A stretch of DNA of 32,000 bases from Fibrobacter succinogenes subsp. succinogenes S85 (lineage in GTDB: Bacteria > Fibrobacterota > Fibrobacteria > Fibrobacterales > Fibrobacteraceae). Location: assembly GCF_000146505.1 (NCBI RefSeq), contig NC_017448.1:870001-902000 (forward strand), in the 5' to 3' direction. The position numbers and the translations under genes are program-made. Under the pieces are notes generated by a model. That model was not told where the DNA came from and made no database searches. It saw only the letters and a program-made list of their open reading frames with translations. This document shows, one piece after another, positions 681 to 29,953 of the stretch (its first letter is position 1; each line of letters begins with the position of its first letter).

Positions 681-1064
681 TTATTTCTTCTGGGTTCTGC
701 GATAACCGCGACGAATCGTTTCCGTAGTGCGCTGGAACGGCATCGTCATGATGGTCGGGTTGTTACCGTTACTTGCATAGCAGTAAGAGTAAGCTTCCTT
801 CACGACCGTCATCTGGTAAACATACGGACCCGTAGCGAGCAAACGACCCTTGTCCGTAACCGGATACATCTTGATCGTAGCAAGCATAGCACCCGTAGAG
901 CCATACATCGGAGTTTCACCGCAGCCCGGCACCTTCACGCCTGCAGACTTCGTAGAAGAACGCAAGCCGTTCAAGGCGTTTTCAAATTCTTCCTGTGTCA
1001 CGCGCTTGCTGTACTGGTTCACAAAGTGGCCGAGGTGGTCAAACACGCGAATATTCACATGGAA
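681..1064 (-). other. Shared C-terminal module (copy 1 of 3): beta-sandwich-like segment plus basic tail
   Basis: FHVNIRVFDHLGHFVNQY ... ATGPYVYQMTVV ... TIRRGYRRTQKK-end. The same motif order is found at the C-termini of both giant GH9 proteins. Confidence 0.55.
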
Positions 1065-3374
1065 CGGCTGTGTGGTCGGGAAAGACCAGCTCGTGCAAGA
1101 TTCGTTACTCTTCTTGCCCGGAACGTTTGCAGAACCGTCGTTATAGCAGAGAGTTTTGTTTGCATCCTGGCCTGCACCATAGACAACGCCTGTACCAACC
1201 GGGACAGTCGTAGCCCCCTGAGCACCAGAAGTCATAAGCACCTTGGCGCTATCCTTAGCCCACTTGAGCGGATCAACGTTATTGACAGCCGGAATCGGAG
1301 TCAAAACAAGGTCAGCAGTCATGTCGGTCGGAATCGTACCGCTACCAGCCAAGTCCGTAAGTGCCTGGGATTCATTCGTAAAGTCCGGACGGTCATAAGC
1401 AGGGTCGTCAGGCACCACAGGAGTCGTAGCCACTGCAGTATAAGAAATCTTACCCCACTTTTCACGTTCATCGAAGCCTTCCACATGCTTGCCAGAGCTC
1501 GATGCCACATAGAAAGTCACCTTCTGAGACCAGGCCATCAACTGAGCCCATTCCTGTGCAGTATAGTTACCACCATTGCCATCATCGTTAAGTCCCTGGC
1601 TATACGGAACGTTGAATGCCAAGCGGTCATCGCCCAGGAGGCCACCTTCAACAACGTTACCATTAAGGTCCTTCACGACACCTTCAAACTGGTACATCTG
1701 GCCATCGGCACCCTTGTCAATCGGGCCAGTCATCGAAGTCACATAGAAGCCATAAACCATCGTCACCTTCTGGCCGTTAGCATCGGTCACTTCGCGCAAC
1801 ACAACCATGGACGGCACATTCGGATTGTTGATAGCAATAAGGCTAGAGTCTGCCAGCGGGACGTTCATGTACATGCTGTTGTGAGAAATACCGTTTTCGT
1901 CCACCTTCACGACGACATCGCTAACAGTCGGCTGACCATAACGGGACGGAGCAAGTTCGGCAAGAGACGTACGGATGTAAATGTTGGAACCATCGGACTG
2001 ACGGTCTGCATAGAAGAAGTGCAAATGATGCCAAGTATCATCGGCCCAGCCAGTTGCATCAGAAGCGCCGGAGCAGTTCGTGTAACCGGAAAGCGGTTCA
2101 CCGACATGGCAACCATGATTGTTCCTTGCAAGAACTTCAATATCGACCTTACCCGGAGCAGACAAGTGCGTACCGCCCAAGTCCACGACAAGCACGCCAT
2201 CAACAAAGATCCACATGTCATCGTCACCAGCGAATTCAAACACTTCGTGTGACGGAGTCTGGTTTGTAGTCTTGTACTTGAAGCTTGCGTAACCCATCAT
2301 GGTAAAGGCGTAGTTGCGGAGGTGCTGCAAGCCGAGGCTTCCATTCATCACAGCAGCCTGCCATGCGGCGCTATGTCCACTGCCATTTTCAACAGCACGC
2401 GGGCCACCCTGATTCAACCAGTCCTGACAAAGCTTAGCCGTATTCTGGTTCAAGAAGTCAGCCTGGTCCTTGGCATACTGGTAGTTGTAAGGCGGGCAGA
2501 AAATTGAGAGCGTCTGCGGGTCATACTGGTCACACACACCGTTCGGCTGGATCGAAGCATTACAGGGCTTGTTCATTACCCATTCTCTTGTAACCGGGTT
2601 GATGCTATCCAGCGGAGAATAACCACCATTGTTATAGTTATAGTCGTAAATGTAGTACTTGGTACCAGCAGGATCCTTCGGGATATCCATTGTTGTGTTG
2701 ACACGCTTGTTCTGGCCCGGAACATCAAGATACCACTGTTCAAAGAACTGGTTGTCGCAGCGTTCGTTCATCTTGCTGATGACGACACCGTCATACATAT
2801 CAATCTTGCCGTCAGCACCAGGAGCAGCAAAAATCAAATAAGGATTCACCATGCCCGGCGTGTAAATAACCGGATTGGACCAGTTTGTACCACCATTCGG
2901 GCATTTGTAACCACTCACGTCATTCTGGGCATTCTTGTAACCACGCTGCGTCCATCCCTGAGTAGACTTCTGGGAACATTCACCATACTCCAAGACAGGA
3001 CCAGCAGAAACAGTCTGTAAATAGGCCGGGAGATACGGATTCACCTGTCTCGGGAAACCATCAGTACCAATTTCGGCACCGACAATACCCGGCTGGAACG
3101 TATTCATGTTACCACAAGTATTATGATACGGTACATTGGCATACCAGACTGCATCGTAACCATACAAGTTCATTGCAGCACCGGTAGAAGTCCTGTAATT
3201 GTAAATTTCATTCAGATGATTAACGGATTCTTCCGAGAAATTTTCAAAGTCAGGGTGATTCGGCTGGAAATCGCGAATCACAATATCCAATGTGCGGACA
3301 TCCTGGGTCTGGGCAAAAGTAGCAACGGAACAACCAAACAGAGCACCGAGGGTAATCCATCTATATAATTTCAT
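681..3374 (-). CDS. Fibro-slime domain protein: secreted PA14-like cellulose-adhesion family protein with a basic C-terminal tail
   Basis: ORF 681..3464. Start moved to the ATG at 3374 (MKLYRWITLGALFGCSVATFAQ is a signal peptide; GGAG lies ~12 nt upstream). The N-terminal LDIVIRDFQPNHPDFENF and the core FEFAGDDDMWIFVDGVLVVDLGGTHLSAPG are hallmark fibro-slime/PA14-like motifs. The protein ends in RRGYRRTQKK. Confidence 0.85.
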   Translation of the reverse strand: MKLYRWITLGALFGCSVATFAQTQDVRTLDIVIRDFQPNHPDFENFSEESVNHLNEIYNYRTSTGAAMNLYGYDAVWYANVPYHNTCGNMNTFQPGIVGAEIGTDGFPRQVNPYLPAYLQTVSAGPVLEYGECSQKSTQGWTQRGYKNAQNDVSGYKCPNGGTNWSNPVIYTPGMVNPYLIFAAPGADGKIDMYDGVVISKMNERCDNQFFEQWYLDVPGQNKRVNTTMDIPKDPAGTKYYIYDYNYNNGGYSPLDSINPVTREWVMNKPCNASIQPNGVCDQYDPQTLSIFCPPYNYQYAKDQADFLNQNTAKLCQDWLNQGGPRAVENGSGHSAAWQAAVMNGSLGLQHLRNYAFTMMGYASFKYKTTNQTPSHEVFEFAGDDDMWIFVDGVLVVDLGGTHLSAPGKVDIEVLARNNHGCHVGEPLSGYTNCSGASDATGWADDTWHHLHFFYADRQSDGSNIYIRTSLAELAPSRYGQPTVSDVVVKVDENGISHNSMYMNVPLADSSLIAINNPNVPSMVVLREVTDANGQKVTMVYGFYVTSMTGPIDKGADGQMYQFEGVVKDLNGNVVEGGLLGDDRLAFNVPYSQGLNDDGNGGNYTAQEWAQLMAWSQKVTFYVASSSGKHVEGFDEREKWGKISYTAVATTPVVPDDPAYDRPDFTNESQALTDLAGSGTIPTDMTADLVLTPIPAVNNVDPLKWAKDSAKVLMTSGAQGATTVPVGTGVVYGAGQDANKTLCYNDGSANVPGKKSNESCTSWSFPTTQPFHVNIRVFDHLGHFVNQYSKRVTQEEFENALNGLRSSTKSAGVKVPGCGETPMYGSTGAMLATIKMYPVTDKGRLLATGPYVYQMTVVKEAYSYCYASNGNNPTIMTMPFQRTTETIRRGYRRTQKK
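1950..3293 (-). other. Fibro-slime (PA14-like) domain region of the 681..3374 protein
   Basis: Runs from IRDFQPNHPDFENF to FFYADRQSDGSNIYIRTSL and includes the GDDDMWIFVDG...DLGG motif. Boundaries are approximate. Confidence 0.6.
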
Positions 3375-3577
3375 AATAATCCAATCTCCACCTAAGGATA
3401 GGTTACAACAATTCCACCTAAATATAAACCAAATAAAATGAAAAGAGGTCCTATTATAATGCAAAATATATGTAAAAACAGAAAATCTTGAGAAAAGCCG
3501 GCAAGTTCCGTATTATATCCACAAAAACACTAGGCCTTCTATGTTTTTTCCAAGTGGATTATCTATTTTTTCCGCCC

Positions 3578-12194: not shown

Positions 12195-13925
12195 ATGCGA
12201 TACACAACAATCAAGGTTGTAGCCTTGTTAGCGGCTACAGCCATAACAGTCTATGCTAACGAAGGCCCGTGCGACATTTACGCCAGGGCAAAAACTCCAT
12301 GCGTCGCAGCACACAGCTTGACACGTGCACTCTACTCCAGCTACAGCGGGAACCTCTACCAAGTCCGCAGAGCCGATGGGCAAACCAAGGACATTCCTGT
12401 CGAAGAGCCGGGAGGCTTTGTCAAATCCTCCGTGCAAGACGACTTTTGTGCAGGTTCCAAATGCACAATTTCAATCATTTACGACCAGAGCAGCTACAAG
12501 AACGACCTGAAAAAATCGCCACCAGTCTATTGGCTAAAAGAAGGCGCCAAGGAAGCGGACGCCAACAGAGCCCCGATTTACATCAGCGGGCGCAAGGCTT
12601 ACGGATTCTATCGCGACGCCTGGTCCGCTACCGGTTACCGCAATAACAACACCAAAGGTGTAGCCACCGGAGACGAAGAAGAATCCATGTACATGGTGGT
12701 TGATGGCAGGCATTACAACGACTTGTGCTGTTTCAACTACGGAAACGCAGAAACGACCGGTAACGATGACGGCCCGGGAACTATGGAATGCATCTACTTC
12801 GGAAGCGACAAGGACTGGGGCGGTCCAGGACAAGGGAACGGTCCGTGGGTAGCCGCGGACTTGGAAGATGGTGTATTCAAGGGAAACGATGCTGGTTGGC
12901 AATGGGGCAAAACCCATACGACACCGTGGCCAAACGCACTTTCTATTGAAGCAGACTATGTAACCGCCATGCTGAAAGGCCCGAACGACGGAACGTTCAA
13001 ACTCAAAGGCGGCAGCGCCCAAAAAGGAAAACTCAACACCATGTGGGATGGCCCACGCAAAAGAGGCTACAGTCCACGCAAGCTGCAAGGCGCCATTGTG
13101 CTCGGTAACGGCGGTGACGGTAGCGACGGCGGCGCAGGAACATTCTTCGAAGGCTGCATGACAATCGGCAACCCGCCAGATTCTATTGACGATAAAGTCC
13201 AGGCAAATATTGTTGCCGCTGGTTACGGAAGCAAAATTGAGCTCAAGAAGCCTGATCCGATTGAACCGTTTAAGGATACGCTTACCATCCCGGGAAAAAT
13301 CGAAGCAGAAAACTACGACAAGGGCGGCAACGGTCAGGGATTCTTGGACACCGACATTGAAAACGAGAATTCCCTCTACCGCGAAGACAATGCAGGCCTC
13401 GACAGCGCAGGCGACGCCATTATTTACGGCTGGGGTTATGCCAACGATTGGCTGCGTTATACGATAAAAGTCTCCAAAAACGATTCGCTCGACATTACCG
13501 CACGCGTATCGTCGCCAAGCGATAGCACATTCTTCTCCATTCTCGTCGATGATAAGGATATCGCCAAAATCATGGTGCCAAACACCAGCGATTGGAAAAA
13601 CTTTGAAACAGTCACTACAACCGTGCCTGCAATTACAGCAGGCGACCATGTACTCAAAATTCAAATAGACAAGCCATACTTCAATCTTGACTGGATTGAA
13701 TTTACAGCGGCAAAAGAAAAAACAGCTTTGCCACAATTCAGCCTGCGCACAAATTCATCGCAAATTTACTCCGTCTATGATGTCCTTGGGAACCGCGTGA
13801 CCTCATTCCAAGCAAGCGAAAGCTCTATGCAAAACATTTGGGATAAAGCTCGTGTAGATCTACCAGGTGGCATTTACGTCATCAAGACCAATAGCAAAAC
13901 AATCCGAATTTCAAATACAAAATAA
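12195..13925 (+). CDS. GH54 alpha-L-arabinofuranosidase (fungal AbfB-type catalytic domain) + CBM6 + T9SS-like C-terminal domain
   Basis: Signal peptide MRYTTIKVVALLAATAITVYA. Residues ~24-345 align by eye along their length with Aspergillus/Trichoderma AbfB (GPCDIY..TPCVAAHS.TRALYSSYSG.LYQV, IIYDQS, GYRNN...ATGDEE.MY.V.DG.HYND.CCF.YGNAET, ME.IYFG, GGDGS.GG.GTF.EG, NIVAAGYG). Residues ~362-505 look like CBM6 (IPGKIEAENYDKGG ... DWIEF). The last ~65 aa are IYSVYDVLGNRV...LPGGIYVIKTNSKTIRI. Confidence 0.9.
   Translation: MRYTTIKVVALLAATAITVYANEGPCDIYARAKTPCVAAHSLTRALYSSYSGNLYQVRRADGQTKDIPVEEPGGFVKSSVQDDFCAGSKCTISIIYDQSSYKNDLKKSPPVYWLKEGAKEADANRAPIYISGRKAYGFYRDAWSATGYRNNNTKGVATGDEEESMYMVVDGRHYNDLCCFNYGNAETTGNDDGPGTMECIYFGSDKDWGGPGQGNGPWVAADLEDGVFKGNDAGWQWGKTHTTPWPNALSIEADYVTAMLKGPNDGTFKLKGGSAQKGKLNTMWDGPRKRGYSPRKLQGAIVLGNGGDGSDGGAGTFFEGCMTIGNPPDSIDDKVQANIVAAGYGSKIELKKPDPIEPFKDTLTIPGKIEAENYDKGGNGQGFLDTDIENENSLYREDNAGLDSAGDAIIYGWGYANDWLRYTIKVSKNDSLDITARVSSPSDSTFFSILVDDKDIAKIMVPNTSDWKNFETVTTTVPAITAGDHVLKIQIDKPYFNLDWIEFTAAKEKTALPQFSLRTNSSQIYSVYDVLGNRVTSFQASESSMQNIWDKARVDLPGGIYVIKTNSKTIRISNTK
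13728..13922 (+). other. T9SS type-A-like C-terminal sorting domain of the GH54 enzyme
   Basis: The pattern (Y.VYD.LGN.V ... L.GGIYVIK ... K) matches the Por-secretion-tail consensus by eye. Confidence 0.5.
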
Positions 13926-16379: not shown

Positions 16380-16396
16380 AGTAGATAATAGGGGTT

Positions 16397-16567: not shown

Positions 16568-16608
16568 ATAACGAAACAAAAAAATTCATTTTCCAAGAGG
16601 ATTGAACG

Positions 16609-17310: not shown

Positions 17311-17345
17311 TAAGCGATTCAAAGAACGCTTTTCCAAAAGTTTTG

Positions 17346-17374
17346 AGACCGCCCGCAAGGACGGTCTTTTTTTG
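17346..17374 (+). terminator. Rho-independent terminator of the Ala-rich protein gene
   Basis: AGACCGCC-cgcaa-GGaCGGTCT followed by TTTTTTT. Confidence 0.8.
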
Positions 17375-17587
17375 TAAACTTCTATATACAAATGTTTCTT
17401 ACAAATTCACCACACGATTGTTTGCGGGACAGTAAAAAAAATGAGCATTCTCTCTATATGCTACACTTATTCCCACCACTAAGAAAAATCACAAAATTAG
17501 AGTATAATTTGAGAACAAAAAAAGCTTTTCCCGTAAAACATTTTTACATAAATAATCTATTTTATCTTTTGAGAGAATATAATTAGA

Positions 17588-17614
17588 GGGCAAGACTCGT
17601 TTTGCCCGATTTTT
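17588..17614 (+). promoter_or_regulatory. Leader hairpin plus U-tract immediately upstream of the SD of giant GH9 gene 1
   Basis: GGGCAA-gactcgtt-TTGCCC (17588-17607) followed by GATTTTTA. The SD AAGGAG is at 17623-17628 and the GTG start at 17635. Confidence 0.35.
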
Positions 17615-17634
17615 ACATATGTAAAGGAGACAAT

Positions 17635-20600
17635 GTGAGTATTAAGAAGTATCTGTTAGCTTTGTGCGCTGCCACCTCTGTAATGGCAGCACAGCAGGAA
17701 CAACCGACTCCTTATGATCTGATTCGACCGACTTTCCCATTGACTTGGGATAGCACCGTATTCGATAGATTCGACACCACAGTTACGAAAAAGCACAACA
17801 TGGTGCCAAGAAACAGGACTCCGGCAGCATACGCCCCGAATGCCCTGATTCCAGACACATTGAATCAAGCCTACCTCGACGCCATCAACGTCCGCATGTC
17901 TCCTATCCGCGTTAACCAGGCAGGTTATCTGGAATCGGATCTGGAACGCCAATTCTATTACATTGGTAACGCCTCCTCCTTTGAAGTCGTTGATGTCAAC
18001 GGCAAATCTTTTAGCCCTGCTGTAATGGGCTCACTTACCCCTTCTGGTCAAAGCATTTCGTCGGACTGGACAATTATTGCAGGCACTAACGCCGCCACGA
18101 ACGACCAGAAACGCTACCAAGTTGATATCACCGGCCAAGCCGGCAAGCTCATGATCGGTCACATTCCGCAGGGCGTCCCAACCGACACGCGTCTCCGTAT
18201 CAAGGTCGGTAACGATATTTCGAGCACATTCATTATCTCCAACAAGGTTTACTCCATGGTGAAGGATGCCGCCCTCAAGTTCTACGGCATCAACCGCAGC
18301 GGTGATGGTGATTCCTGGTTCCATGCAGCAAGCCATATGAAGGATGGCGCCGGTGCTGTAGTGACGGGAGCAGAAGATGTTCGAGATCAGTATAACGCAG
18401 CTCTTGCTGGAACGTTGCAAGGTGGCTACTATGACTGTGGCGACCACTTGAAGGAATCCCAGACCCAGATGTACGCATTCATGGTTGCAGCAGTCCTTGC
18501 AGCAACAAACGCCGATGCCGACGAAGACCATTACGCATTCAACCATGGCGAAACGGTCAATACCGATGGTATGCCGGATATGTTGCGCGAAGCAAAGCAT
18601 GGAGCAGATTATGTGTTGCGAGCCTATATTCGCGCCAAGGGCGTGATTGACGACATGGCTCTTTCTGTGGGTAACTTTGGTTCTGACCACGGTTGGTGGG
18701 GCCGCCCCGAAAACAGCGACAAACTGCCTGTTGACGGATCTGCCGCAGCTACAGACCGTGGCGGTCCCATGTCGCGTACAGTGCGCCTAGGTGAAATTGG
18801 AGCAAACATCGGTGGCGAAACTGCAGCAGGCCTTGCCCTTGTGGGTAAGCTTTATTCTGAATACCCTGAACATAAGGCTTTTGCCGATAGCTGTTTGAAG
18901 GTTGCAAAGGAAATGTATGACTTTGCAAAGTCTATGGCTCAAGGCAAGGTTTATAAGAATAATACCGAAGCTGCCGGTTGGTCTTCTCCAGCCTACAACG
19001 GCAATAACGAATACTTTGACGACCTTGCGCTTGCGTCTGTTGCCCTGTGGTATGCAACTGGAGATTCGAAGTATGGCGATGATGCTATTCGTTCCAAGAC
19101 GCTTGGCACGACGGTTCCTCAGTCGTTCATGGAAAACTGCGTGGGCTGTTTCGACGGTGGCTGGTTCGTGACCGACAACAAGGGTTTCCTTAAGAATGTG
19201 AAGAACACCAGCTGGGCCAACGCCTATGCTTATGCGACCTATGCCCTTTACAAGTTGATTCTTGCTGACGAAAACAAGGCTATTAATGAATTTGGCATGA
19301 CCAAGGAAGAACGTCTCAACGCCATTGAAGACTGTATCATGAGCATGATCCATAACTTGAGCGATGTGAGCGCCGGTACGGCGACAATCACCTTGCCCCG
19401 CAAGGATCCTTCCAATTACATGGTTCAAGATATTGGCTGGAAGGGCAATGAAGTCAAGTACGACCCCATCTGGTACTCAATGCAGACGGACCAGACCTGG
19501 ATTTACAACCGTTACCAAGCGGGTAACATCTTCGAAGTTTTGGCTTATGCTGACGTAGCAAAGGATATTGAGAAGCAGAATCTTTCTCTTCCGAACTTGG
19601 GAACCCCTAACTGGAAGGCCGACGAAATGTTCCAGTTGGGTATCAACCAGCTGAACTACCTCTTGGGCGTAAACCCGTGGGATGTGTCATACATTTTGGG
19701 TATCGGCGACAAGAACGACGCCCATCCGCACCACCGCGCAGCAAACCCCGAAGGCAAGAACCAACCGGGTGCCGCTTACAAGTATAATCCGCCTGTAGGA
19801 GCACTTTATGGCGGCGTGACTCCGGGAACGACGAACTCCATGGTTCCTGACAACAAGAGCTGGGAAGACTACCACAAATCTGAAACCTGTATCGATGCTG
19901 CCGCAACGCTCGTCAGTTCGGGTATGATAGCTTCGGCCAAGTTTGACCGTACGGCCGCACCGGACATTAGCGTAGAAATCCGCCATGTGAGCATGGACTC
20001 GGCGATTGTCATGATTAAGCTCACTCAGCGCGGCACAACCGTCATTTCTTACGGCACAACTGAAGGCCAGTACACTCTAAACGCAGTAGACTCTGTTGCC
20101 GGGATCCAACACGAAATGGTTTTGCGAGGTCTCACCCCAGGTACGACCTACTACTTCTACGTTACCGGTTCCAACGCTTACAAGCCAGAGAACTCAAAGA
20201 CAAAGTTCCTCGTGGATAGCACGCAGACTCCGTTCACATTCACGACACTCAGCACCATCGAAAACGCAAACATCGCAAACGTTACCGTCTGTAACGTCAG
20301 TGCCGACAGCGCCGAAATCATGTGGTACACCCCGAACGGAGAATACGAATCCAAGATCTACTGGGATACAATTCCGCACTCCAAGGCCGAAGAATTTGCA
20401 TTCAATACAGGAACGGGAAATGCAGACGTGTCCGGCATTCCGACCCAGTTCCACTACGTAAAGATTGGCGGACTTAAAGAAAAGACGACCTACTATTTTA
20501 TGGTCGAAAGTAACGGCGTACAGACTAATGTCGACGACAAGGGCAACCTCCTCAAGTTCACGACGCCTGTCGGCTGGTACGATTTCTCAGTCCGCGCCTA

Positions 20601-23600
20601 TCAATACGAATTTGGAGGAACGGAATTCCTAAATCTCAACATTTACAATAACGAAGCACGCGCATTCGACAGCCTTACTTTGCGCATGTACTTCAGTGCA
20701 AAGCCCGAAGAAGTAGAAAAGTGCGCCACGTTGATAGACTCCGACATCTGCCAAGCTTACGACGAAGCAGGCTTCAACAAGCCCTGCGAAAACGACCGCG
20801 AACTCCGTGACTTGATGCGTGCCGCATTACCGGTCCGTTTGGACGACACATACAATCCGACAACAGGTAAGTACGCTTACTACTTCCCAGTGCCGCTGGG
20901 TTCCTCGATTATCAAGTCCCAGTCTCGTCTGCGTGTTGATTTGACCTATTCTTCGGGTATTAGCAATGATGGCTACAAGACTTGCGAAACTCTTCGTGCT
21001 CCGGCCAAGAAGCACATGGACAAGACTACAGGAGACTGGTCTTGGGCTCCGCACGAATTCCTCGTCGATGGCGCAGACTATGATGGCATGCCTCAAGAAG
21101 ACAAAGACTACGGCGACCTTGACAACGATATCCCGGTAAACCCCTATATTGTCGTTTATCGTAAAAACGAATTTATTTGGGGTTTCAGCCCTTCCAAGAG
21201 CGAAATGGAAACCAAGAAAGCAAACTACCAGATGGACGTGACATTTGACCCTCCGTTCAACGTCTCCAACGGTTCCCATATCGACATTGACCAGACTAGC
21301 AGCACCGTCCATGTGACTGGTTACGCTCACATCACTGAAGGTGGCTACGTTACAAAGATTTGGGCTAACGGCGTACAGATCAGCGGCGAAGCATTTGCTG
21401 ACGGTACCGACAGATGGCTCTTGAACGAAGCTGGTACAGAAATTATCGCCAAGTACAATATGACCACCGACATGTGGGACCTCGATATTCCGGTCAAGAT
21501 GGGTATCGGAAGCAACAAAATTGACATCACCATCTTTGCAGGCCCGAACCCCACATGTGAAAAATGCTCCGAAGGCGGTGGCTGCGCATTTGAGAACAGA
21601 AACTACTATATCAACTTCTCCAAGGGCGATGCTACAGCCTCGACACTTGTCATCAAGGATGCTGCAGGCAATCCGATTACAAGCCCTGCAAATACCGATG
21701 GCACAGTATTCTTTATTGACTTGATGGACAAGGATAAGATCAAGGGCAACGTGCAGACGCTCGAAGTCCAGGTTCTCAACAACAAGAAGAACGATGTCCT
21801 CAAGGTCACCTTAACGGCAGACGCCGCCAATCCGGGTCACTTTGTCGGTGGACCGATTACAGCAGTCAGCCACTCCAAGGAAACTAGAAACGCAGCTTCC
21901 GAGATTTCGTTCTTTGCAGGCGACACCATCCAGGTTGTCTATACCGACCCGGATGACGAAGACGATGTTTCCAAGCAGACGTTCTACGCTGAATCCAAGG
22001 TTCCGTCTCCGCAGACCGTTCTCGCCGAAGACAGCAACTGCGACAACAAGGCCGACCAGCTTAGAATCGTTTTCACGAACAAGCTCAGCGCCGATTACCC
22101 GCTGGATAGCATCAGGTACTTTATCGAAGGCATGAGCGATACGGTCAGCGTTCCGCTTGTCGCAGCAAACTATACAGACAAGAACGAAATCCTCATCGCT
22201 CTTGACACAAGCCTCATTCCGACCAATGCAAATCCGTCCGGAAAGATTACGACTTACGTCGCCGACCGCGGTGTCGCAAACGCCGAAAGCGCAAAAATTA
22301 CCGATGGCATCCTCCCCACTCTCGTGAGCGTGTCCATCCTCGAGAAATCGGACAACGACGATAGCGGTCTCGATACCGTCATGATAGCCTTCTCGGAACC
22401 GGTCATCTTCTCGAACATGAACGAATGGCCGCTCGTGATTGCAGGTACAACTAGCGCACCGACTCTCGCGGCAGCCCCGACGACAACGAACAACGGCAAG
22501 AGCTGGCAATTGATTATCAGCGGAAACGTGAACAATTCGCTTGTACCGATTGGAGCTTTGGCTAGTGCAAGAACGACTGGCGGATTTACGATTACCGACC
22601 AGAACTTCAACCAGATTAACCCGGCCGGCTGTAACCCGAGCGTCCCAGTAACGCTTATTTCTCGCCCGGTCCCGGTCTACCATGCCGATATGATCGACAA
22701 GGAAGGCGACGGTGTTCCGGATGTGGTTTACATCGTATTCGAAAGAAAGCTCAAGCCGAAGGATGTCTTCGACAGCATCGTAACAGTCTGGGGAAACCCG
22801 GGCATTACACGCTCGTTCATCACGACAGCAGATACGACCGGAGGCGTCATTGTGCCGAAGGAAAGCTACTGGACTATCCGCGATACGGTTTCGGCTCCGT
22901 TCACGATACAGATTGATTCTGTTACGACAAAGGATTCCGTCAACACCTATAGCATTATCGAAATCACTATTCCGGCAACACACGCCTATCCGTATGGTTC
23001 AACAAGTGGCGATAGAGATGGTAACGGAACCGTTTCCCCGCTCAAGGGTGCTGCAAACGGCTTCTTTGAAACGAACTACACGCTGTACGACAAGTGCGCA
23101 CCGGTCATTTCGACCGCCCGTATGATCAAGAACGGATTGCTTACCGTCAACATCTCGGAACCGGTAACGGTCCTCGATGCAGGCAAGTACATCCAGCGTG
23201 AACGCGATGAATTCATCCCGTCTCAGGCACCTCAGGGAATGGGCAAGAGCTTCCTCTTCACCTACAACGAGAAGGATAACGTATTCCACGCCGGAGACCG
23301 CGTCCGCCTCGTTCCAAACATTCTCGGTTCTGCTTACGTCGACAAGAACAGCAACACTCCGACTATAGCAAATCCCTACGTCCGTATCACGGGTGACGAC
23401 AACATCCGCTTCTCTGTAACGCTTTCGAAGCCGGTGTCCACACCGAAGGCTGGCGCTTACATGGGTCGCCCGGAAAGCGTCTCCAACGATGCATTCGTAA
23501 CATCCGCAGTCATCAACGGCAAGCACAACTTCATCAACGGAGACGGAACCGTCATCGGTCAGGTAGACACCGCAGCCTACTTTGGCTCGGGCCCGAACTT

Positions 23601-24024
23601 CGAAATTGAAGTGATGATGCCTTCTGCAAGCTTCACGACACACGAAGGCTTGCCGATGTACAACTTCCATCTGAAGATTGTGACGGACCTTTACGACAAC
23701 CTCGGACAGTACATCAATACCTACAAGCTCGATATTCCGAGCGAAAAGTTCCAGTCGATGCGAAACCTCATCGACAACGGAACTCTCAAGCTCAACATGG
23801 AATGGGCCGCCAAGGATAACGAAGCTCCGGTCGCCAAGAAGGGTAACAAGATTGGCACAGGCGCTTACATCGCGAAGTTTGACTTCACTGCGGAATCCTA
23901 CTGCGCTGCTAAATTCGATGAATCGAGCAACGATTACAAGGCCAAGTGTACAGAAATCGGTGCCAGGGCAGAAAAGGCTTCTGACAGCAAGACCAAGACT
24001 CTCGGTTTCAAGAGAAGAAAGTAA
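17635..24024 (+). CDS. Giant multi-module GH9 family glycoside hydrolase / surface protein (2129 aa)
   Basis: ORF 17602..24024. I prefer the GTG at 17635 (AAGGAG 6 nt upstream), giving the signal peptide VSIKKYLLALCAATSVMAAQQ. Modules in order: CelD_N-like Ig (IRVNQAGYL); GH9 catalytic (GGYYDCGDHLKESQ, NPWDVSYILGIGDKNDAHPHHRAANP, YHKSETCIDAAA); two FN3 (GLTPGTTYYFYV, GLKEKTTYYFMV); a CBM3-like beta-sandwich; about 950 aa of Ig-like modules; and a C-terminal IVTDLYDNLGQYIN...GTGAYIAKF...KTLGFKRRK. Confidence 0.9.
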   Translation: MSIKKYLLALCAATSVMAAQQEQPTPYDLIRPTFPLTWDSTVFDRFDTTVTKKHNMVPRNRTPAAYAPNALIPDTLNQAYLDAINVRMSPIRVNQAGYLESDLERQFYYIGNASSFEVVDVNGKSFSPAVMGSLTPSGQSISSDWTIIAGTNAATNDQKRYQVDITGQAGKLMIGHIPQGVPTDTRLRIKVGNDISSTFIISNKVYSMVKDAALKFYGINRSGDGDSWFHAASHMKDGAGAVVTGAEDVRDQYNAALAGTLQGGYYDCGDHLKESQTQMYAFMVAAVLAATNADADEDHYAFNHGETVNTDGMPDMLREAKHGADYVLRAYIRAKGVIDDMALSVGNFGSDHGWWGRPENSDKLPVDGSAAATDRGGPMSRTVRLGEIGANIGGETAAGLALVGKLYSEYPEHKAFADSCLKVAKEMYDFAKSMAQGKVYKNNTEAAGWSSPAYNGNNEYFDDLALASVALWYATGDSKYGDDAIRSKTLGTTVPQSFMENCVGCFDGGWFVTDNKGFLKNVKNTSWANAYAYATYALYKLILADENKAINEFGMTKEERLNAIEDCIMSMIHNLSDVSAGTATITLPRKDPSNYMVQDIGWKGNEVKYDPIWYSMQTDQTWIYNRYQAGNIFEVLAYADVAKDIEKQNLSLPNLGTPNWKADEMFQLGINQLNYLLGVNPWDVSYILGIGDKNDAHPHHRAANPEGKNQPGAAYKYNPPVGALYGGVTPGTTNSMVPDNKSWEDYHKSETCIDAAATLVSSGMIASAKFDRTAAPDISVEIRHVSMDSAIVMIKLTQRGTTVISYGTTEGQYTLNAVDSVAGIQHEMVLRGLTPGTTYYFYVTGSNAYKPENSKTKFLVDSTQTPFTFTTLSTIENANIANVTVCNVSADSAEIMWYTPNGEYESKIYWDTIPHSKAEEFAFNTGTGNADVSGIPTQFHYVKIGGLKEKTTYYFMVESNGVQTNVDDKGNLLKFTTPVGWYDFSVRAYQYEFGGTEFLNLNIYNNEARAFDSLTLRMYFSAKPEEVEKCATLIDSDICQAYDEAGFNKPCENDRELRDLMRAALPVRLDDTYNPTTGKYAYYFPVPLGSSIIKSQSRLRVDLTYSSGISNDGYKTCETLRAPAKKHMDKTTGDWSWAPHEFLVDGADYDGMPQEDKDYGDLDNDIPVNPYIVVYRKNEFIWGFSPSKSEMETKKANYQMDVTFDPPFNVSNGSHIDIDQTSSTVHVTGYAHITEGGYVTKIWANGVQISGEAFADGTDRWLLNEAGTEIIAKYNMTTDMWDLDIPVKMGIGSNKIDITIFAGPNPTCEKCSEGGGCAFENRNYYINFSKGDATASTLVIKDAAGNPITSPANTDGTVFFIDLMDKDKIKGNVQTLEVQVLNNKKNDVLKVTLTADAANPGHFVGGPITAVSHSKETRNAASEISFFAGDTIQVVYTDPDDEDDVSKQTFYAESKVPSPQTVLAEDSNCDNKADQLRIVFTNKLSADYPLDSIRYFIEGMSDTVSVPLVAANYTDKNEILIALDTSLIPTNANPSGKITTYVADRGVANAESAKITDGILPTLVSVSILEKSDNDDSGLDTVMIAFSEPVIFSNMNEWPLVIAGTTSAPTLAAAPTTTNNGKSWQLIISGNVNNSLVPIGALASARTTGGFTITDQNFNQINPAGCNPSVPVTLISRPVPVYHADMIDKEGDGVPDVVYIVFERKLKPKDVFDSIVTVWGNPGITRSFITTADTTGGVIVPKESYWTIRDTVSAPFTIQIDSVTTKDSVNTYSIIEITIPATHAYPYGSTSGDRDGNGTVSPLKGAANGFFETNYTLYDKCAPVISTARMIKNGLLTVNISEPVTVLDAGKYIQRERDEFIPSQAPQGMGKSFLFTYNEKDNVFHAGDRVRLVPNILGSAYVDKNSNTPTIANPYVRITGDDNIRFSVTLSKPVSTPKAGAYMGRPESVSNDAFVTSAVINGKHNFINGDGTVIGQVDTAAYFGSGPNFEIEVMMPSASFTTHEGLPMYNFHLKIVTDLYDNLGQYINTYKLDIPSEKFQSMRNLIDNGTLKLNMEWAAKDNEAPVAKKGNKIGTGAYIAKFDFTAESYCAAKFDESSNDYKAKCTEIGARAEKASDSKTKTLGFKRRK
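18244..19935 (+). other. GH9 catalytic domain of giant protein 1 (approximate)
   Basis: DCGD carries the two catalytic Asp of the GH9 DAGD motif. The HHR motif and the acid Glu in SETCID are present. The domain is ~560 aa, so it carries insertions relative to the ~450-aa typical GH9 barrel. Confidence 0.8.
19957..20568 (+). other. Two tandem FN3-like modules of giant protein 1
   Basis: ISVEIRHVSMDSAIVMIKL...YGTTEGQY...LRGLTPGTTYYFYVTG and NVTVCNVSADSAEIMWYT...IYWDT...KIGGLKEKTTYYFMVES. Confidence 0.7.
23665..24024 (+). other. Shared C-terminal module (copy 2 of 3)
   Basis: FHLKIVTDLYDNLGQYINTY ... LKLNMEWAAKDNEAPVAKKGNKIGTGAYIAKFDF ... KTKTLGFKRRK-end. Confidence 0.55.
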
Positions 24025-24097: not shown

Positions 24098-27000
24098 ATG
24101 AAAAGATTACTCAGCATTGTTTCTTTACTGGCTATGTTCTGCATGGATTATGCAGAGGCAGAACTACCGAACATAGACAGAACATGTACCACCTGTAGCC
24201 GACGCTATTTGGACTCGTTGAACGTCTACAACAGACGCCCAATCCGAATGAACCAAAGCGGATTTAGACCGCAAGACTACAAGTACGCCTATGTCGCCGA
24301 TCCAAAGGAAATGACATTCAAGGTCATTGATGCAAACAGTGGTAAGGAAGTTCCGGGTGGCGGAAACCTCTCGCTTATCAAGAAAGGCGCTACAAAGCCA
24401 AACATCTGGATCAATGGTGCATTCAACTCAATGGAAAGCATTTATGAGTTTGGTAAACAAGACTCCATCAGCACAGAAAAGGAAGACCTGTACCGAGCCG
24501 ATTTTACGACGCTTTCGACAACGGGCGAATACTTCCTTGTCGTGGGCAAAGACACTTCGGCCACATTCCATGTACACCCATCCATCTACAACTCCATCCT
24601 CGAGAACTCCTTGCAGTTCTTCGGGATTCAACGCTGCGGTAACACAGATTCGCACTTCCACAAGCCCTGCCACTTGAAAGACGGCTCCAAAGTCGGACAT
24701 GACTTGACGGGCGGTTGGCATGACTGTGGTGACCATTTCAAGGTTTCTGAAACTCTTGGCTATACCGCCTACGTGCTTTCGATGGTTTACCTTACCTACC
24801 CCAACAAGGCTGAAGACCGCTATGGTCATTCTTATGCAGACACAGTCTTTACAGACGGTATCCCGGATATTCTCTACGAAGCAAAAATCGGTGCCGATTA
24901 CATACTCAAGCTTTACAAGGCCTCCAAAGAAGATGGATTGATTGCCCAAAATGACATGTACCATTCCGTGGGCGTTGACGAAAAGGACCACTCATTCTGG
25001 GACTTGCCGGAACGTCAGGACGCTCAGCCAGAATCTAAGGGCGGTCCAGACCGCGTTGTGCTCACAGGCATTGGCGCAAACACTTCGGGTATGTTTGTTG
25101 CAGCCCTTGCAAACGTCGCTGCCGGCTATCGCGTTTACGACCCAGCCTATTCTGATACGCTCATCGAAGCAGCAAAAGACATCTACAAGAACGTGATGAT
25201 GCCGCTCTTTGACTATGGTAACGGAAACGAAATGGGAAAGACGACATCATTCCCTGGATTCTATACCGGTGGCGGTCCGCGTTATGACGATGGTGCGGCA
25301 GCTGCACTCGCCTTGTGGTACGCCACTAAGGACACGACCTACCGCTATGACCTTTACAAGAACACCAACATTTTCAACAACCCCACCAACTCTAGATTCA
25401 ACCTGGACTACTTCAAGGCTGGATTCCTCGGCAACGAAAGTGGCTTTTCTCCTGGCGGCTGGGCAACTGACTACCAGAACATCCACACCTATGTGCTGTT
25501 CGCATTCCAGAACCTGATTTTGAAGAGCTCGGAAACAGCGGCCGAATTCGGTCTTACAGAAATCGAACGCGACTCCCTCTCGATGCGTACGATGGCAACA
25601 TTCCGCAAAATTTTGAATGACGCCACAAACCAGGGTGACTCTACCGTTCTCGTCAATCCGGGGGTAAACTCCAACGAAAAAAGCGAAGCTCATGAAGGTC
25701 CGACAGACCTCAAGGTCATTACTCCCTACAACCTTGTATGGACTAGCTTTGACTGGGGCGTGATCCGCTACAACCTGGGTACAGCCGTTTCCATCTTCTT
25801 GATGTACGAACTCACGAAGGACGAACGCTATTTGAAAGTCGCTCTTGACAACATGTACTACGCCCTTGGCGCTAACCCGTGGGATATTTCCCTCTTGATG
25901 GGCGCAGGTGACAAGAACCCGCAACACCCGCACAACCGTTCTGCAAACCCCGATGGCTTCAATACCGGTGGCATGCCTTACCAGTACCGCTGCCCGAAGG
26001 GTGCTCTCATGGGTGGCCGCGATCCAGAAAAAACACTTATCGAAGACTGGAGCAAATACACCTCTACCGAAACATGTATTGACTTCTCGGCACAGTTCCT
26101 CTTCCCGGCACAGAGCCTTGCAGAAACGCTCCCGCCTGATAACGAAGGCCCGATTTTTAGCAACATCGTCGGAACGCCGATTACAGATTCTACCGCTATC
26201 GTAAGCTGGGACGCAAACGAAGTCGCCCTTGTTACGGTTTTCTACGACGTAGTCCCCAATTCTGCCAATCCGAAATCAGTGCAGCAGACCACAGCCTCTA
26301 AGGGCGGTTCTGTAACGCTTACCGGACTCATTCCTGGACAGACATATTACTTCTTCCTCGAAGGCATGGACACCAAGAGAAACATCACGACTGATGACAA
26401 CCATGGTTATTGGTACTCCTTTACCATGACTCCCAAAATGACTGAAATCAAGGGAGTTACGATTTGCCAGGTCGACCATCGCAGTGCAAAGATTTACTGG
26501 TGGAGCACCGACCGTCTGAACGGCGTCGTCAACTACGGAAAGGCCAAGGGTGCCTACACTGAAACCCAAAATGCAAGTGGCAGCGCAGTCCTTTTCCACG
26601 AAGCCGAGCTCACAGGACTTGAAGCCGGTACGACCTATTACTTTACCGTTTCCTCGGGCGCAAAGACTTCTGAAGAATACTCATTTACCACAGAAAACCA
26701 CGCCACCTACGCTGACCTCGATATTTCTTTGAAGCCGAGTTCTTACGGTGGAGAAGCCGCCTGTAGCCAATGGCAAGATTGCCATGCCTTCATCATGTCG
26801 CTTTCAAACAACGACACCGTACCATTCGAAGACTTTGAAGTGCGTATGTACCTCAAGGATCAAAACCTCTCCGCACTCGGAAACTGCCACCAAAACTTCG
26901 GAGGCGACGGTCAAATGGGTAAGCCGATTAACGTTACTTTCGGAACCGCTCAGGCAGACGGTTTTGGAGGCTATTATCTCCCCATTAACGTCAAAGGCAA

Positions 27001-29953
27001 ACTAGAAGTTTCTGGACAGCTGATTATCCAAATTATTTTCCACAACTACGATCCTAATGTAAAGACAGTGAAATTCAGCGACATAGATAATTCCTGGTCA
27101 CTCCGCGCACACACCGAAGAAACCGATCCAGAACATTTTGAAGGCATTGACTTGACTCAAGCTCCTTACTTCAAGGGTTCTGAAACGACATTCCTCGAAT
27201 ACAATTCCAGGGGTGAAAAAGTTGTCGCCTTTACCCGTGACCCCTATATTACCGTCTATTACCACGGCAAGCACATCTATGGTTACGGTCCGGACTACAC
27301 ACCTGAAAATGGGCCGCAAGTCAAACGCACCATCGAAACAACGTTCACAAGCCCGTTCGTAAGCCCAAGATATTCTGTTGAAAAGGAAGATCCGCTCACA
27401 ACATACGCCGCCACAAGTAAGGTTACGCCAACGGGTGTCCTCGATGCCGTCGAAATGAACAGCAACCCGTATAAGTTTGACTACCCCAACCCCAACCGCA
27501 CCGACTCTATCGCCTTCGGTACAGATACAACTCTCGTCTACGGCAACAACTACATGGAATGGGTCACCTGGCACAACAGAAATGCCAACCAGAAGACCGA
27601 AAACAAGTATGACTGCGCATGCGCCGTGGTCCGTAGCAACGTTGAAATCGACAGTATCACGAAACCGCTCGAAAAACGTTATCTCACCTTTGACAAGTTG
27701 CAAATTGAAGGCTACAAGGACAAGTTCATCGAAGTGCAGATATCACTCCTCGACAGCAGCCTGGCTGTTATCAAGGATGAAAAGAACCTGAACGTTGAGC
27801 TTGTTAGCGATGATCCGAACGTTCAATTCTACACAGATCCAACAGCAACAATTCCTGTAACAACAATCACACTCTACGATGGCGTAGCAACAATCTACGT
27901 AAGCTCCAAGGTCGCCGTAACGACAAACATCTACGCAACGCACGGCAATACCGCAGACTACGCCTATACACCCGCGACAGCGGTTCTCAATATCGCTGAA
28001 CTCCCGCCATGGCCGATTATCGATGTGGCAAAGATTGTAGACCTCAACTGCGACCATATTCCTGATGCCATGGATATCACGCTATCCTCAGAATACGCAG
28101 AAAATCAGTCATTCACTTCAATTTCGTTCACCTATGGGGACAAGACTTACACCTCCGACAAGGTAAAATCCCTGAACGGCAAATCCCTCGTTGTAGAAAT
28201 CAATGTTCCTCAAGAAATCGTAACGAATGCCACAGGCAAGATTACTCTTACCAGCAACATTCAAGGCACCACCAAGACGGTAGACGACTCCTACGGAGAT
28301 GGCATTGCCCCGGCACTGCTCTCGGCAACGGTTCTTGAACGCCAGGATACATCTACAACCGACCACGTCTACCTGCAATTCAGCGAACCGATTTCCGCTC
28401 CTGGCACAATCTTCCCGCTGATTCTCTACGGTACGGACGGTGTAACTTTGGCAGCAACTCCAACCGTTCTTTCAGCTAAGCTCTACAACGAAGCCAAGAA
28501 CATCTGGGATTTCGAAATTTCGTTTGGCGCAGGAAACGTCTCGCTCGTCACTGCAGGCATGTGGGGACAGCTGAATCCGGCAGGAACGATCACAGACTTG
28601 AACGGTAACGGCGTTGCAGGTCTCTGCACTCCGGAAAAGGTTGAAATTCTCCTGAAGATTTTGCCTGTTCCAATGACTTACGCTGTCATCACAGACAAGC
28701 TGCAAAACGGTTATGCAAGCCACGTGGACGTGACTTTTGCAAAGGCACTCGACGAAAAGCATACACCGGAAAAGTTGGAAATCATCTTCGGTATTGCAAA
28801 GCCCGAAACGCTCACTGTGGAAAAAGGCAAGTTTACGCTTATCGGCGAAAACCTCTCCATTGACCTCGAGAAACCCTTCCAGTTCGGCAATACCGCCGGT
28901 AACTACGAAGGCACAACTCCGGGCGGAAAGATGCTTAGCCATGCAGGGCTTGTCACGCAGTATCTCGGAACAGGCGCAGCAACCGAAACTAACGAAATTC
29001 TCGCAGAAGACAAGGTCGGTCCGGTATTCGTGTCGGCTAAAATCAACCAGACGAACACAACCGATATCGTAACCATTACCGCGAGCGAGCCTCTCATCAT
29101 CGCCGATTCCTCTCAGCAGCTCTATAGACACAAGCGCTCCGACAAGCAGTCCAACGTGTTCACAAGCGGAGTTTCTAGCTGGAACTTCGTCCCGAATAAC
29201 AACTCGCTTACGCTCCTTTACAATGGCGACCTCATGGGTCAAGTCATGGAAGGCGACTACGTGAGAATGGGCTCCATGATGACAAGCGTATTCAAGGATG
29301 CCAACGGCAACTATCCTGAATTTGAAGTTCCCTGGGTCCTTGTCAACGGCAATGGCGCTCCGAGAATCAAGTTCGATGTCAAGCTGCGTGAAATCGTCAC
29401 GGATTTGACCCCGAGCAACCGCACCAAGATTGATGTCAACGAAACAATGCGATTCTACATCAAGAATCCGTCAACGAACAAGTTCGACCTCATCCAGAAC
29501 GGCAAAATTACGCTTGCAGGCATTGACTCTGCCGATATTGGCGGTGCCATCTTTGATGCAAAGCTCACTGTGCCGCGTGGCGTATCGATGGCTGACGAAT
29601 GCGCATGGGAAAATCTCCTTGTCAAGTTCAAAATCCCGATTTACTCAAATCTTGGAAACTTTGTCAACAGATTCCACAACTCCTTCAATGTGGATCCCAA
29701 GCTCTACCTCTCGCCCAACAACCAGGTGGAATTCGCCATTGAATGGGCTAACAAGGCTCCGTCTGGAATCCGTAGCAAGGACGATAGGGCTGTTGGCACC
29801 GGCGCATACATCTACAAGGCCGAAATTGAAGCTATATTCTCACCGAACATGAATATACCCGAAGTCAAGAACGATGCCAAGATAATCCAGAACTTCTCGT
29901 CGAAGACTTCGTTTGATCAGACAAAGACATTCGGTATAAAGAGGACTAAATAA
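24098..29953 (+). CDS. Giant multi-module GH9 family glycoside hydrolase / surface protein (1951 aa), paralogue of the upstream gene
   Basis: Signal peptide MKRLLSIVSLLAMFCMDYAEA. Modules in order: CelD_N-like Ig (IRMNQSGFRP); GH9 (GGWHDCGDHFKVSE, NPWDISLLMGAGDKNPQHPHNRSANP, YTSTETCIDFSAQ); two FN3 (GLIPGQTYYFFL, GLEAGTTYYFTV); a CBM3-like segment; Ig-like modules; and a C-terminal IPIYSNLGNFVN...GTGAYIYKAEI...KTFGIKRTK. Confidence 0.9.
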   Translation: MKRLLSIVSLLAMFCMDYAEAELPNIDRTCTTCSRRYLDSLNVYNRRPIRMNQSGFRPQDYKYAYVADPKEMTFKVIDANSGKEVPGGGNLSLIKKGATKPNIWINGAFNSMESIYEFGKQDSISTEKEDLYRADFTTLSTTGEYFLVVGKDTSATFHVHPSIYNSILENSLQFFGIQRCGNTDSHFHKPCHLKDGSKVGHDLTGGWHDCGDHFKVSETLGYTAYVLSMVYLTYPNKAEDRYGHSYADTVFTDGIPDILYEAKIGADYILKLYKASKEDGLIAQNDMYHSVGVDEKDHSFWDLPERQDAQPESKGGPDRVVLTGIGANTSGMFVAALANVAAGYRVYDPAYSDTLIEAAKDIYKNVMMPLFDYGNGNEMGKTTSFPGFYTGGGPRYDDGAAAALALWYATKDTTYRYDLYKNTNIFNNPTNSRFNLDYFKAGFLGNESGFSPGGWATDYQNIHTYVLFAFQNLILKSSETAAEFGLTEIERDSLSMRTMATFRKILNDATNQGDSTVLVNPGVNSNEKSEAHEGPTDLKVITPYNLVWTSFDWGVIRYNLGTAVSIFLMYELTKDERYLKVALDNMYYALGANPWDISLLMGAGDKNPQHPHNRSANPDGFNTGGMPYQYRCPKGALMGGRDPEKTLIEDWSKYTSTETCIDFSAQFLFPAQSLAETLPPDNEGPIFSNIVGTPITDSTAIVSWDANEVALVTVFYDVVPNSANPKSVQQTTASKGGSVTLTGLIPGQTYYFFLEGMDTKRNITTDDNHGYWYSFTMTPKMTEIKGVTICQVDHRSAKIYWWSTDRLNGVVNYGKAKGAYTETQNASGSAVLFHEAELTGLEAGTTYYFTVSSGAKTSEEYSFTTENHATYADLDISLKPSSYGGEAACSQWQDCHAFIMSLSNNDTVPFEDFEVRMYLKDQNLSALGNCHQNFGGDGQMGKPINVTFGTAQADGFGGYYLPINVKGKLEVSGQLIIQIIFHNYDPNVKTVKFSDIDNSWSLRAHTEETDPEHFEGIDLTQAPYFKGSETTFLEYNSRGEKVVAFTRDPYITVYYHGKHIYGYGPDYTPENGPQVKRTIETTFTSPFVSPRYSVEKEDPLTTYAATSKVTPTGVLDAVEMNSNPYKFDYPNPNRTDSIAFGTDTTLVYGNNYMEWVTWHNRNANQKTENKYDCACAVVRSNVEIDSITKPLEKRYLTFDKLQIEGYKDKFIEVQISLLDSSLAVIKDEKNLNVELVSDDPNVQFYTDPTATIPVTTITLYDGVATIYVSSKVAVTTNIYATHGNTADYAYTPATAVLNIAELPPWPIIDVAKIVDLNCDHIPDAMDITLSSEYAENQSFTSISFTYGDKTYTSDKVKSLNGKSLVVEINVPQEIVTNATGKITLTSNIQGTTKTVDDSYGDGIAPALLSATVLERQDTSTTDHVYLQFSEPISAPGTIFPLILYGTDGVTLAATPTVLSAKLYNEAKNIWDFEISFGAGNVSLVTAGMWGQLNPAGTITDLNGNGVAGLCTPEKVEILLKILPVPMTYAVITDKLQNGYASHVDVTFAKALDEKHTPEKLEIIFGIAKPETLTVEKGKFTLIGENLSIDLEKPFQFGNTAGNYEGTTPGGKMLSHAGLVTQYLGTGAATETNEILAEDKVGPVFVSAKINQTNTTDIVTITASEPLIIADSSQQLYRHKRSDKQSNVFTSGVSSWNFVPNNNSLTLLYNGDLMGQVMEGDYVRMGSMMTSVFKDANGNYPEFEVPWVLVNGNGAPRIKFDVKLREIVTDLTPSNRTKIDVNETMRFYIKNPSTNKFDLIQNGKITLAGIDSADIGGAIFDAKLTVPRGVSMADECAWENLLVKFKIPIYSNLGNFVNRFHNSFNVDPKLYLSPNNQVEFAIEWANKAPSGIRSKDDRAVGTGAYIYKAEIEAIFSPNMNIPEVKNDAKIIQNFSSKTSFDQTKTFGIKRTK
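24575..26122 (+). other. GH9 catalytic domain of giant protein 2 (approximate)
   Basis: DCGD and the acid Glu are retained. The HHR motif reads HNR (second His replaced by Asn). Confidence 0.75.
26144..26695 (+). other. Two tandem FN3-like modules of giant protein 2
   Basis: GTPITDSTAIVSWDANE...LTGLIPGQTYYFFLEG and VTICQVDHRSAKIYWWST...NYGKAKGAY...LTGLEAGTTYYFTVSS. Confidence 0.7.
29618..29953 (+). other. Shared C-terminal module (copy 3 of 3)
   Basis: LVKFKIPIYSNLGNFVNRF ... VEFAIEWANKAPSGIRSKDDRAVGTGAYIYKAEI ... TKTFGIKRTK-end. Confidence 0.55.

Follow-up and report, generated by a model that had tools for sequence, protein, structure and literature searches.

In a 32,000-nucleotide stretch of the Fibrobacter succinogenes subsp. 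succinogenes S85 genome (contig NC_017448.1, positions 870,001 to 902,000; hereafter, the window), three proteins were found to share one homologous C-terminal module of 115-133 amino acids (aa). These were the fibro-slime protein Fisuc_0377 and two giant GH9 proteins encoded in tandem, GH9-1 (Fisuc_0393, also FSU_0809) and GH9-2 (Fisuc_0394, also FSU_0810). The module represents an undescribed class that is distinct from the basic terminal domain (BTD/FPm-1) known from this bacterium. With a probability of approximately 0.55, it is considered to be a Fibrobacterales-specific, long C-terminal domain (CTD) of the T9SS (type IX secretion system) type, which would be retained on the mature protein and would serve very large adhesins and GH9 enzymes both as an export signal and as an anchor at the surface.

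The similarity of the three tails was far beyond chance. BLASTP aligned the GH9-1 tail with the GH9-2 tail at E=2e-11 and with the fibro-slime tail at E=4e-8, and the GH9-2 and fibro-slime tails were aligned at E=0.007. The motifs quoted in the original prediction, which was made from the DNA sequence before this analysis, were seen in all three translations in the same order: RVFDHLGHFVN, DLYDNLGQYIN and PIYSNLGNFVN, then ATGPYVY, GTGAYIA and GTGAYIY, and finally RRGYRRTQKK, TLGFKRRK and TFGIKRTK before the stop codon (fibro-slime protein, GH9-1 and GH9-2, respectively). The position proposed for the GH9-1 tail, 23665-24024, was right within two codons, since the alignment gave 23659-24021 plus the stop codon. 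The carriers had also been described as three unrelated proteins. However, the two GH9 giants were found to be paralogous over the greater part of their sequences (BLASTP: 979 aa at 29% identity, E=4e-86) and therefore count as one lineage, which leaves the fibro-slime protein as the truly independent carrier in the window. Consequently, three architectures carry the module independently: two in the window (fibro-slime/PA14 proteins and GH9 giants) and one beyond it (cadherin-repeat giants).

When 1.84 billion representative proteins were searched with a profile of 19 tails, 410 clusters were retrieved at E<=1e-3, of which 109 reached E<=1e-10. Position was studied in 147 retrieved representatives. 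In 139 of these (95%), no more than 5 residues separated the end of the domain from the C-terminus, and in 145 no more than 12; the domain never occurred twice in one protein, which bore out the expectation of a recurrent, strictly C-terminal module on secreted proteins. A simple heuristic detected a signal-peptide-like N-terminus in 87 of the 101 long module proteins. Three cargo classes were distinguished: fibro-slime/PA14 proteins (850-950 aa), GH9 giants (1900-2200 aa) and cadherin-repeat giants (1400-3150 aa), the last ending in FGYKRP. Searches for homologous proteins returned mostly short fragments orthologous to the three window tails and added little on cargo or taxonomy. In GCA_001462305.1 (locus L005, 5169-19447), two cadherin-repeat giants of 1515 and 3148 aa were encoded side by side, with the module on the 3148-aa protein and a GH9 gene nearby; thus, not only GH9 giants but also cadherin-type proteins are encoded by tandem pairs of cargo genes.

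Column conservation revealed three blocks in the module. The first was h-x-h-[YF]-[DTS]-x-[LM]-G-x-[FY]-[VI], which contains the motif B hairpin, and its Gly was present in 148 of 155 family tails. The second was G-[RK]-x-x-[GA]-T-G-[AP]-Y-[IV]-x-[KQ] followed by a Cys; its core, G-T-G-[AP]-Y-[IV] (motif D), was nearly invariant across the family. The third lay at the very end, where [FR]-G-[YFIW]-[KRM]-R preceded a stretch of 0-6 residues, mostly basic, and then the stop codon; 146 of 155 tails had G-[YFIWV]-x-R with such a stretch behind it. Conservation within the module was highest in the C-terminal strand and in motif B with its Gly. The isoelectric point (pI) of the module was 9.1-9.8, with a family median of 9.1.

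A degenerate DNA pattern for motif D, which covers approximately 30% of the known tails, was run against one genome per GTDB species and matched at least 120 stretches. Among the matches listed, 111 of these stretches lay in records named Fibrobacter, Fibrobacteraceae or Fibrobacterales, 5 were chance matches without the terminal motif, and 3 were true tails in bins from one study labelled Oscillospiraceae, Senegalimassilia and Eggerthellaceae. Among these matches, the module was confined to Fibrobacter and its relatives (Fibrobacterales), and, given the coverage of the pattern, its absence elsewhere is no more than likely. The three bins with other labels (L030, L046 and L067), which came from a human-gut study, carried fibro-slime tails closely resembling a Fibrobacter intestinalis tail (L088), so these bins were probably contaminated or mis-binned. 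All three cargo types were found within single genomes.

The module was compared with known T9SS CTDs. In family scans, the three window tails matched no Pfam or NCBIfam model. When 58 diverse members were scanned singly, no Pfam family recurred, and none of the members matched the type A model PF18962. The only recurrent NCBIfam family was TIGR04183 (T9SS type A), found in 7 of the 58 members, with the best E-value of 0.0039 and all matches under the cut-off. The type B models TIGR04131 and PF13585 matched none of the 58 members at E<=10. A hidden Markov model (HMM) was then built from 14 BTD/FPm-1/type A tails of S85 and scored on 155 module tails. More than 10 bits were reached by 39 of these tails (maximum, 19.7 bits), with 12.6 bits for the fibro-slime tail of Fisuc_0377, whereas reversed or shuffled decoy tails scored no more than 3.4 bits, and 8.0 bits was not exceeded by any of 885 stretches of 150 aa taken outside the tails of these proteins. 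The family scans and the HMM comparison together upheld the original prediction of a likeness to T9SS CTDs without a match to any defined model.

This HMM aligned the strand-hairpin that surrounds motif B; motif D (GNGVYIVKV versus nGvYivr) was aligned as well in the FGWMR subgroup, and the order was the same. Profile-profile alignment with hhalign of the module and type A tails gave E-values of 1e-3 to 2e-4 at a probability of 21-50% and matched motif B and motif D across a large insertion. The order of motif B, motif D and the Lys/Arg-bearing C-terminal strand is thus that of type A, with a spacing much longer than in the type A family. At the level of sequence profiles, the similarity of the module to type A CTDs is distant but specific, and it is particular to the tail. 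According to mutagenesis in Porphyromonas gingivalis, T9SS export requires the Gly of the motif B hairpin and the Lys-bearing C-terminal strand (PMC11285876). Since these two export-essential elements correspond to the most conserved parts of the module, their conservation counts in favor of a T9SS CTD. The T9SS has been placed in Fibrobacterota in general terms (PMC11285876). Moreover, because F. succinogenes has many classical type A tails, one of them in the window, a pathway recognising CTDs is expected in the cell.

The original prediction equated the module with the BTD of the Fibrobacter literature. This assignment was not upheld, and the mapping should be reversed. The BTD was equated with FPm-1 by Suen et al. 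in the genome paper, where it was found mainly on hemicellulases and esterases, and none of the cellulases was reported to have FPm-1 or another known anchoring domain. The BTD/FPm-1 sequences in the supplement of Raut et al. are 45-90 aa long, and they aligned with the tail of the GH54 enzyme encoded in the window. A joint profile of these sequences matched the solved CTDs of RgpB, mirolase and HBP35 in the PDB; therefore, BTD/FPm-1 is the classical type A CTD. The same search also matched NHL repeats and, in entry 8glk, a chain of 75 aa that carries the name Endonuclease I. With TIGR04183, the GH54 tail itself reached only E=0.0059 and 16.6 bits where the cut-off is 23; this type A-like tail would therefore escape standard annotation.

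Assignment of the module to BTD/FPm-1 was rejected because the module forms a separate, longer class, FSU_0809 is listed by Raut et al. with 'na' for both BTD and T9SS signal, and the cellulases were stated to lack FPm-1. Only the basic charge and a distant profile similarity are common to the two. The proposal that two tail classes coexist in the window did stand, since the GH54 tail grouped with the S85 FPm-1/BTD tails and not with the long module. Among the papers searched, none described the module or tied the C-termini of fibro-slime proteins to a shared domain. In the Raut 2019 supplement, a third, very short basic tail of approximately 40 aa, also named BTD, was observed in FSU_2361, FSU_2362 and FSU_2986. 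Its forms, ...RLRFDDQKVFIEKxGKRFDLKGxxxK and ...YDFKGRIIK, look unlike both FPm-1 and the long module, and it may correspond to the 'short CTD' class of Prevotella intermedia.

The structure of the module was predicted confidently with AlphaFold2 from a 58-sequence alignment with the GH9-1 module as the first sequence (pLDDT 89.7, pTM 0.78). The model contained strands at residues 2-13, 18-26, 68-81 and 103-117, a helix at residues 28-33 and short bridges. An earlier model from a 19-sequence alignment had a pLDDT of 66, and its Foldseek result was not used as evidence. With the final model, the Foldseek match of the highest probability was P. gingivalis PorU (0.99, 74 columns, root-mean-square deviation 2.8 A, 22% identity). 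PorU has a 105-residue uncleaved CTD (PMC11285876), but which part of PorU matched was not reported, and the match is suggestive only. The PorU CTD comprises residues 1054-1158. A likeness to FlgD-Ig, which had been raised from the sequence, appeared just as low-probability Foldseek matches and was dropped.

The fate of the module, left open in the original prediction, was partly clarified by a published envelope proteome. Raut et al. tabulated 21 unique peptides for A7UG57 (FSU_0809), of which 3 lay inside the module; from tryptic-peptide counts, approximately 1.7 would be expected if the protein were intact. These included NLIDNGTLK (residues 2055-2063, three spectra, best posterior error probability (PEP) 3e-6) and IGTGAYIAK (residues 2084-2092, PEP 0.002). 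In the same table, two classical cargoes, FSU_2303 with 84 rows and FSU_2914 with 68, showed none of the 6 CTD peptides expected for them, in agreement with Raut et al., who reported no CTD peptides for BTD/FPm-1 cargo. From one protein in one dataset, these data favor retention of the module on the mature protein.

The following mechanism may be proposed. Cargo would cross the inner membrane through Sec. The T9SS translocon would then recognise the module via the motif B hairpin with its invariant Gly (L-beta3-beta4) and via the last strand with its conserved basic residue (the C-terminal motif). Unlike classical tails, the module would not be removed but would stay on the mature protein and hold the large adhesins and cellulases non-covalently on the outer membrane or on vesicles. 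Such retention is modelled on type B CTD cargo, which is held by PorP-like proteins, and on the uncleaved CTDs of PorU and PorZ. The T9SS dependence, the anchoring role and the receptor of the module are parts of the proposal that we infer. Fisuc_0377, Fisuc_0393 and Fisuc_0394 were all detected in extracellular-medium and outer-membrane fractions by Burnet et al. (PMC4668043). Together with this detection, the terminal position, the single copy and the signal-peptide-like N-termini give the module the anatomy of a sorting signal, which supports its interpretation as a T9SS CTD.

Several observations weigh against this mechanism. No member of the family reached the curated cut-off of any T9SS CTD model, and the hhalign probabilities were modest. 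A search of PDB sequences with the module profile returned no CTD, just NHL repeats matched through the hairpin, so that motif B alone is not diagnostic and part of the CTD signal could come from a generic hairpin. Foldseek against the PDB gave nothing at E<=1e-3 with the module model, and for the PorU match, the matched region of PorU was not reported. The predicted four long strands of 9-15 residues are unlike the compact seven-strand sandwich of solved CTDs. The evidence for retention came from one protein and one dataset, and since that preparation also contains cytoplasmic proteins, the module peptides could have come from unprocessed precursor. The third module peptide, AKCTEIGARAEK (residues 2114-2125), which lies 15 aa from the C-terminus, was a weak identification (PEP 0.048). 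For the abundant fibro-slime protein FSU_2502, which may or may not carry the module, no peptide with module motifs was found. Finally, no porP/sprF-like gene adjoined the cargo genes in the window, at the S85 locus or in 112 Fibrobacter loci.

A bolder form of the idea, which we consider a tentative possibility, is that the module is a new retention signal confined to Fibrobacterales, with a dedicated outer-membrane receptor or shuttle that docks the fibro-slime and cadherin giants and the GH9 giants, uncleaved, on the cell and vesicle surface. If so, the module would be the missing anchor of the non-cellulosomal cellulolytic surface complex of Fibrobacter, and either the T9SS would be used in an undescribed way or another pathway altogether would operate.

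It is unlikely that the module is an ordinary cleavable T9SS signal, i.e., a long variant of type A that would be removed by a PorU-like peptidase at the surface before a covalent link is formed between cargo and lipopolysaccharide. The type A motif order and the specific similarity fit such a signal, Raut et al. proposed this route for Fibrobacter glycanases (BTD/FPm-1 cargo), and in P. intermedia both the long and the short CTD classes are cleaved. However, cleavage is at odds with the recovery of FSU_0809 module peptides in a table that held no CTD peptide for two classical cargoes.

Similarly low is the probability that the module is a T9SS-independent retention or adhesion module, namely a basic beta-domain binding lipopolysaccharide, an outer-membrane complex (OmpA/TPR) or cellulose, with export via type II secretion or vesicles. 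This would suit the basic pI of the module, the absence of any T9SS model at threshold and the nature of the cargo, every one of which is an adhesin or a cellulose-active enzyme. Burnet et al. favored type II/III export (PMC4668043), and, as described below, a gene for a putative OmpA/thrombospondin-type protein adjoins the cargo gene at half of the cadherin-type loci. On the other hand, a binding module need not comprise the last residues, yet 95% of the domains ended within 5 aa of the stop codon, and the terminal G-[YF]-[KR]-R motif was the best conserved part. Moreover, the CTD similarity was specific to the tail, and there was one module per protein, unlike carbohydrate-binding modules (CBMs) or adhesion repeats.

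It is highly improbable that the module is a classical signal for sortase, exosortase or rhombosortase, or else an autotransporter-like outer-membrane beta-barrel anchor: the strictly terminal position, the basic cluster at the end and the four long strands of the AlphaFold2 model would be compatible with one or the other, but a hydrophobic helix ahead of the basic end is lacking, polar residues making up the last 30 positions (e.g., EKASDSKTKTLGFKRRK), the strands are only four and amphipathic to polar, the terminus is not aromatic, and no Pfam or NCBIfam match to such families was found.

Table 1. Coordinates in the window of the modules, their motifs, the cargo genes and the short-tail comparator.
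Feature	Position	Strand	Details
GH9-1 module (Fisuc_0393/FSU_0809, UniProt A7UG57)	23659..24021, then stop codon	+	121 aa; translation, alignment
GH9-1 motif B hairpin LYDNLGQYIN, with near-invariant Gly	23689..23718	+	Aligned to motif B of S85 type A CTDs
GH9-1 motif D IGTGAYIAK	23851..23877	+	Peptide identified by mass spectrometry
GH9-1 terminal motif TLGFKRRK, then stop	23998..24021	+	Family conservation
GH9-2 module (Fisuc_0394/FSU_0810)	29606..29950	+	115 aa; translation, BLASTP
Fibro-slime protein (Fisuc_0377) module	684..1082	-	133 aa; translation, BLASTP
GH9-1 cargo gene	17602..24024; public gene call from 17635, 2129 aa	+	Signal-peptide-like N-terminus
GH9-2 cargo gene	24098..29953	+	1951 aa; signal-peptide-like N-terminus
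Fibro-slime cargo gene	681..3464	-	Likely start is an internal ATG giving MKLYRWITLGALFGCSVATFA...
GH54-CBM6 enzyme gene (GH54 arabinofuranosidase with CBM6)	12195-13925	+	
Comparator: short tail of FPm-1/BTD type on the GH54-CBM6 enzyme (T9SS type A-like CTD)	13725..13922	+	66 aa

The window thus contains the fibro-slime gene, the GH54-CBM6 gene and the tandem giant GH9 genes (Table 1). A family scan identified the fibro-slime domain TIGR02148 in the Fisuc_0377 cargo, and the exact GH9-2 sequence was present at 447,405-453,260 of CP001792.1 (F. succinogenes S85). Just upstream of GH9-1, an open reading frame at 16609-17310 (+), called identically in the public S85 record, encodes 233 aa. Its product combines a signal peptide and a hydrophobic C-terminal segment with a long repeat rich in Ala, Gln and Thr (AQAQATAV...DSAKAQATDAAAA), and it had no Pfam match. 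Another gene, at 10152-10700 (+), encodes a CBM9-like protein of 182 aa (Pfam E=9e-36) without an obvious signal peptide.

The neighbors of the cargo genes were counted in 112 Fibrobacter loci, and all counts below apply among these loci. A GH9-type cargo gene was followed by a histidine-kinase gene on the same strand in 23 of 27 loci, as in S85, which suggests a conserved regulatory link between the histidine kinase and GH9-type cargo. Directly downstream of GH9-2 (29953 onward; 15881-20198 in locus L001), genes for a histidine kinase and a response regulator were observed together with one for a sigma-54 activator. Downstream of fibro-slime genes, a convergent gene for a radical-SAM enzyme was found in 30 of 61 loci and a threonine-synthase-like gene in 9 of 61. 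In the window, the fibro-slime gene is followed 30 bp downstream, on the same strand, by a gene for an LptE-family lipoprotein (96-650 (-), Pfam E=1.6e-8), which differs from the genes that recur downstream in other Fibrobacter fibro-slime loci.

At 12 of 24 cadherin-type loci (L006, L016, L029, L040, L048, L062, L063, L104, L106, L107 and others), the cargo gene was adjoined by a convergent gene for a protein of approximately 680 aa. Read by eye, this protein has a signal peptide, a possible beta-barrel region and many aspartate-rich, thrombospondin type 3-like repeats. This putative OmpA/thrombospondin-type outer-membrane protein is a candidate partner or anchor, but the adjacency may be mere synteny among close relatives.

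The export of cellulases and cellulose-binding proteins in F. succinogenes and their hold on the surface represent a long-standing gap. The module provides a searchable signature for one set of cargo, which is set apart from the cargo of the short, cleaved type A tails. As a T9SS-type signal, it would widen the catalogue of such signals beyond Bacteroidota. With a family model, several hundred protein clusters currently labelled 'hypothetical' would be better annotated, and a retained targeting domain could serve for enzyme display on Fibrobacter cells or vesicles.

Among known systems, the short and long type A classes of P. intermedia resemble the present case in that their length differs mainly by the spacing between motifs B, D and E. 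However, their spacers are 1-17 aa long, compared with 40-65 aa in the module, and both classes are cleaved and glycosylated. The type B CTD (TIGR04131/CHU_C) resembles the proposed function, since it occurs on giant adhesins, is retained and is held non-covalently on the surface via PorP/SprF-like proteins (PMC9143113), whereas the module had neither a match to type B models nor an adjacent porP/sprF-like gene. The CTDs of P. gingivalis PorU and PorZ are 96-108 aa long, lengthened by insertions and kept after secretion (PMC11285876), but these proteins are components of the machinery rather than cargo, and their CTDs have no detectable sequence similarity to the module.

Another close system is the type A CTD (TIGR04183/Por_Secre_tail, including BTD/FPm-1), which shares both the genome and the window with the module. 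Both are basic and lie at the extreme C-terminus of Sec-exported surface proteins, and in both, a hairpin of the form h-x-h-[YF]-D-x-x-G-x-x-V is followed by G-x-Y-[IV]-x-[KR] and by a last strand with a basic residue. At 115-135 aa, the module is about twice as long as the classical S85 tails of 65-90 aa, with 45-65 aa between motifs B and D and approximately 40 aa from motif D to the end. It falls under every curated cut-off, and four long strands are predicted for it. Finally, in contrast to the type A CTD, the module has a fixed terminal F/R-G-[YFIW]-[KRM]-R motif, appears to be uncleaved and is limited to very large adhesins and GH9 enzymes as cargo.

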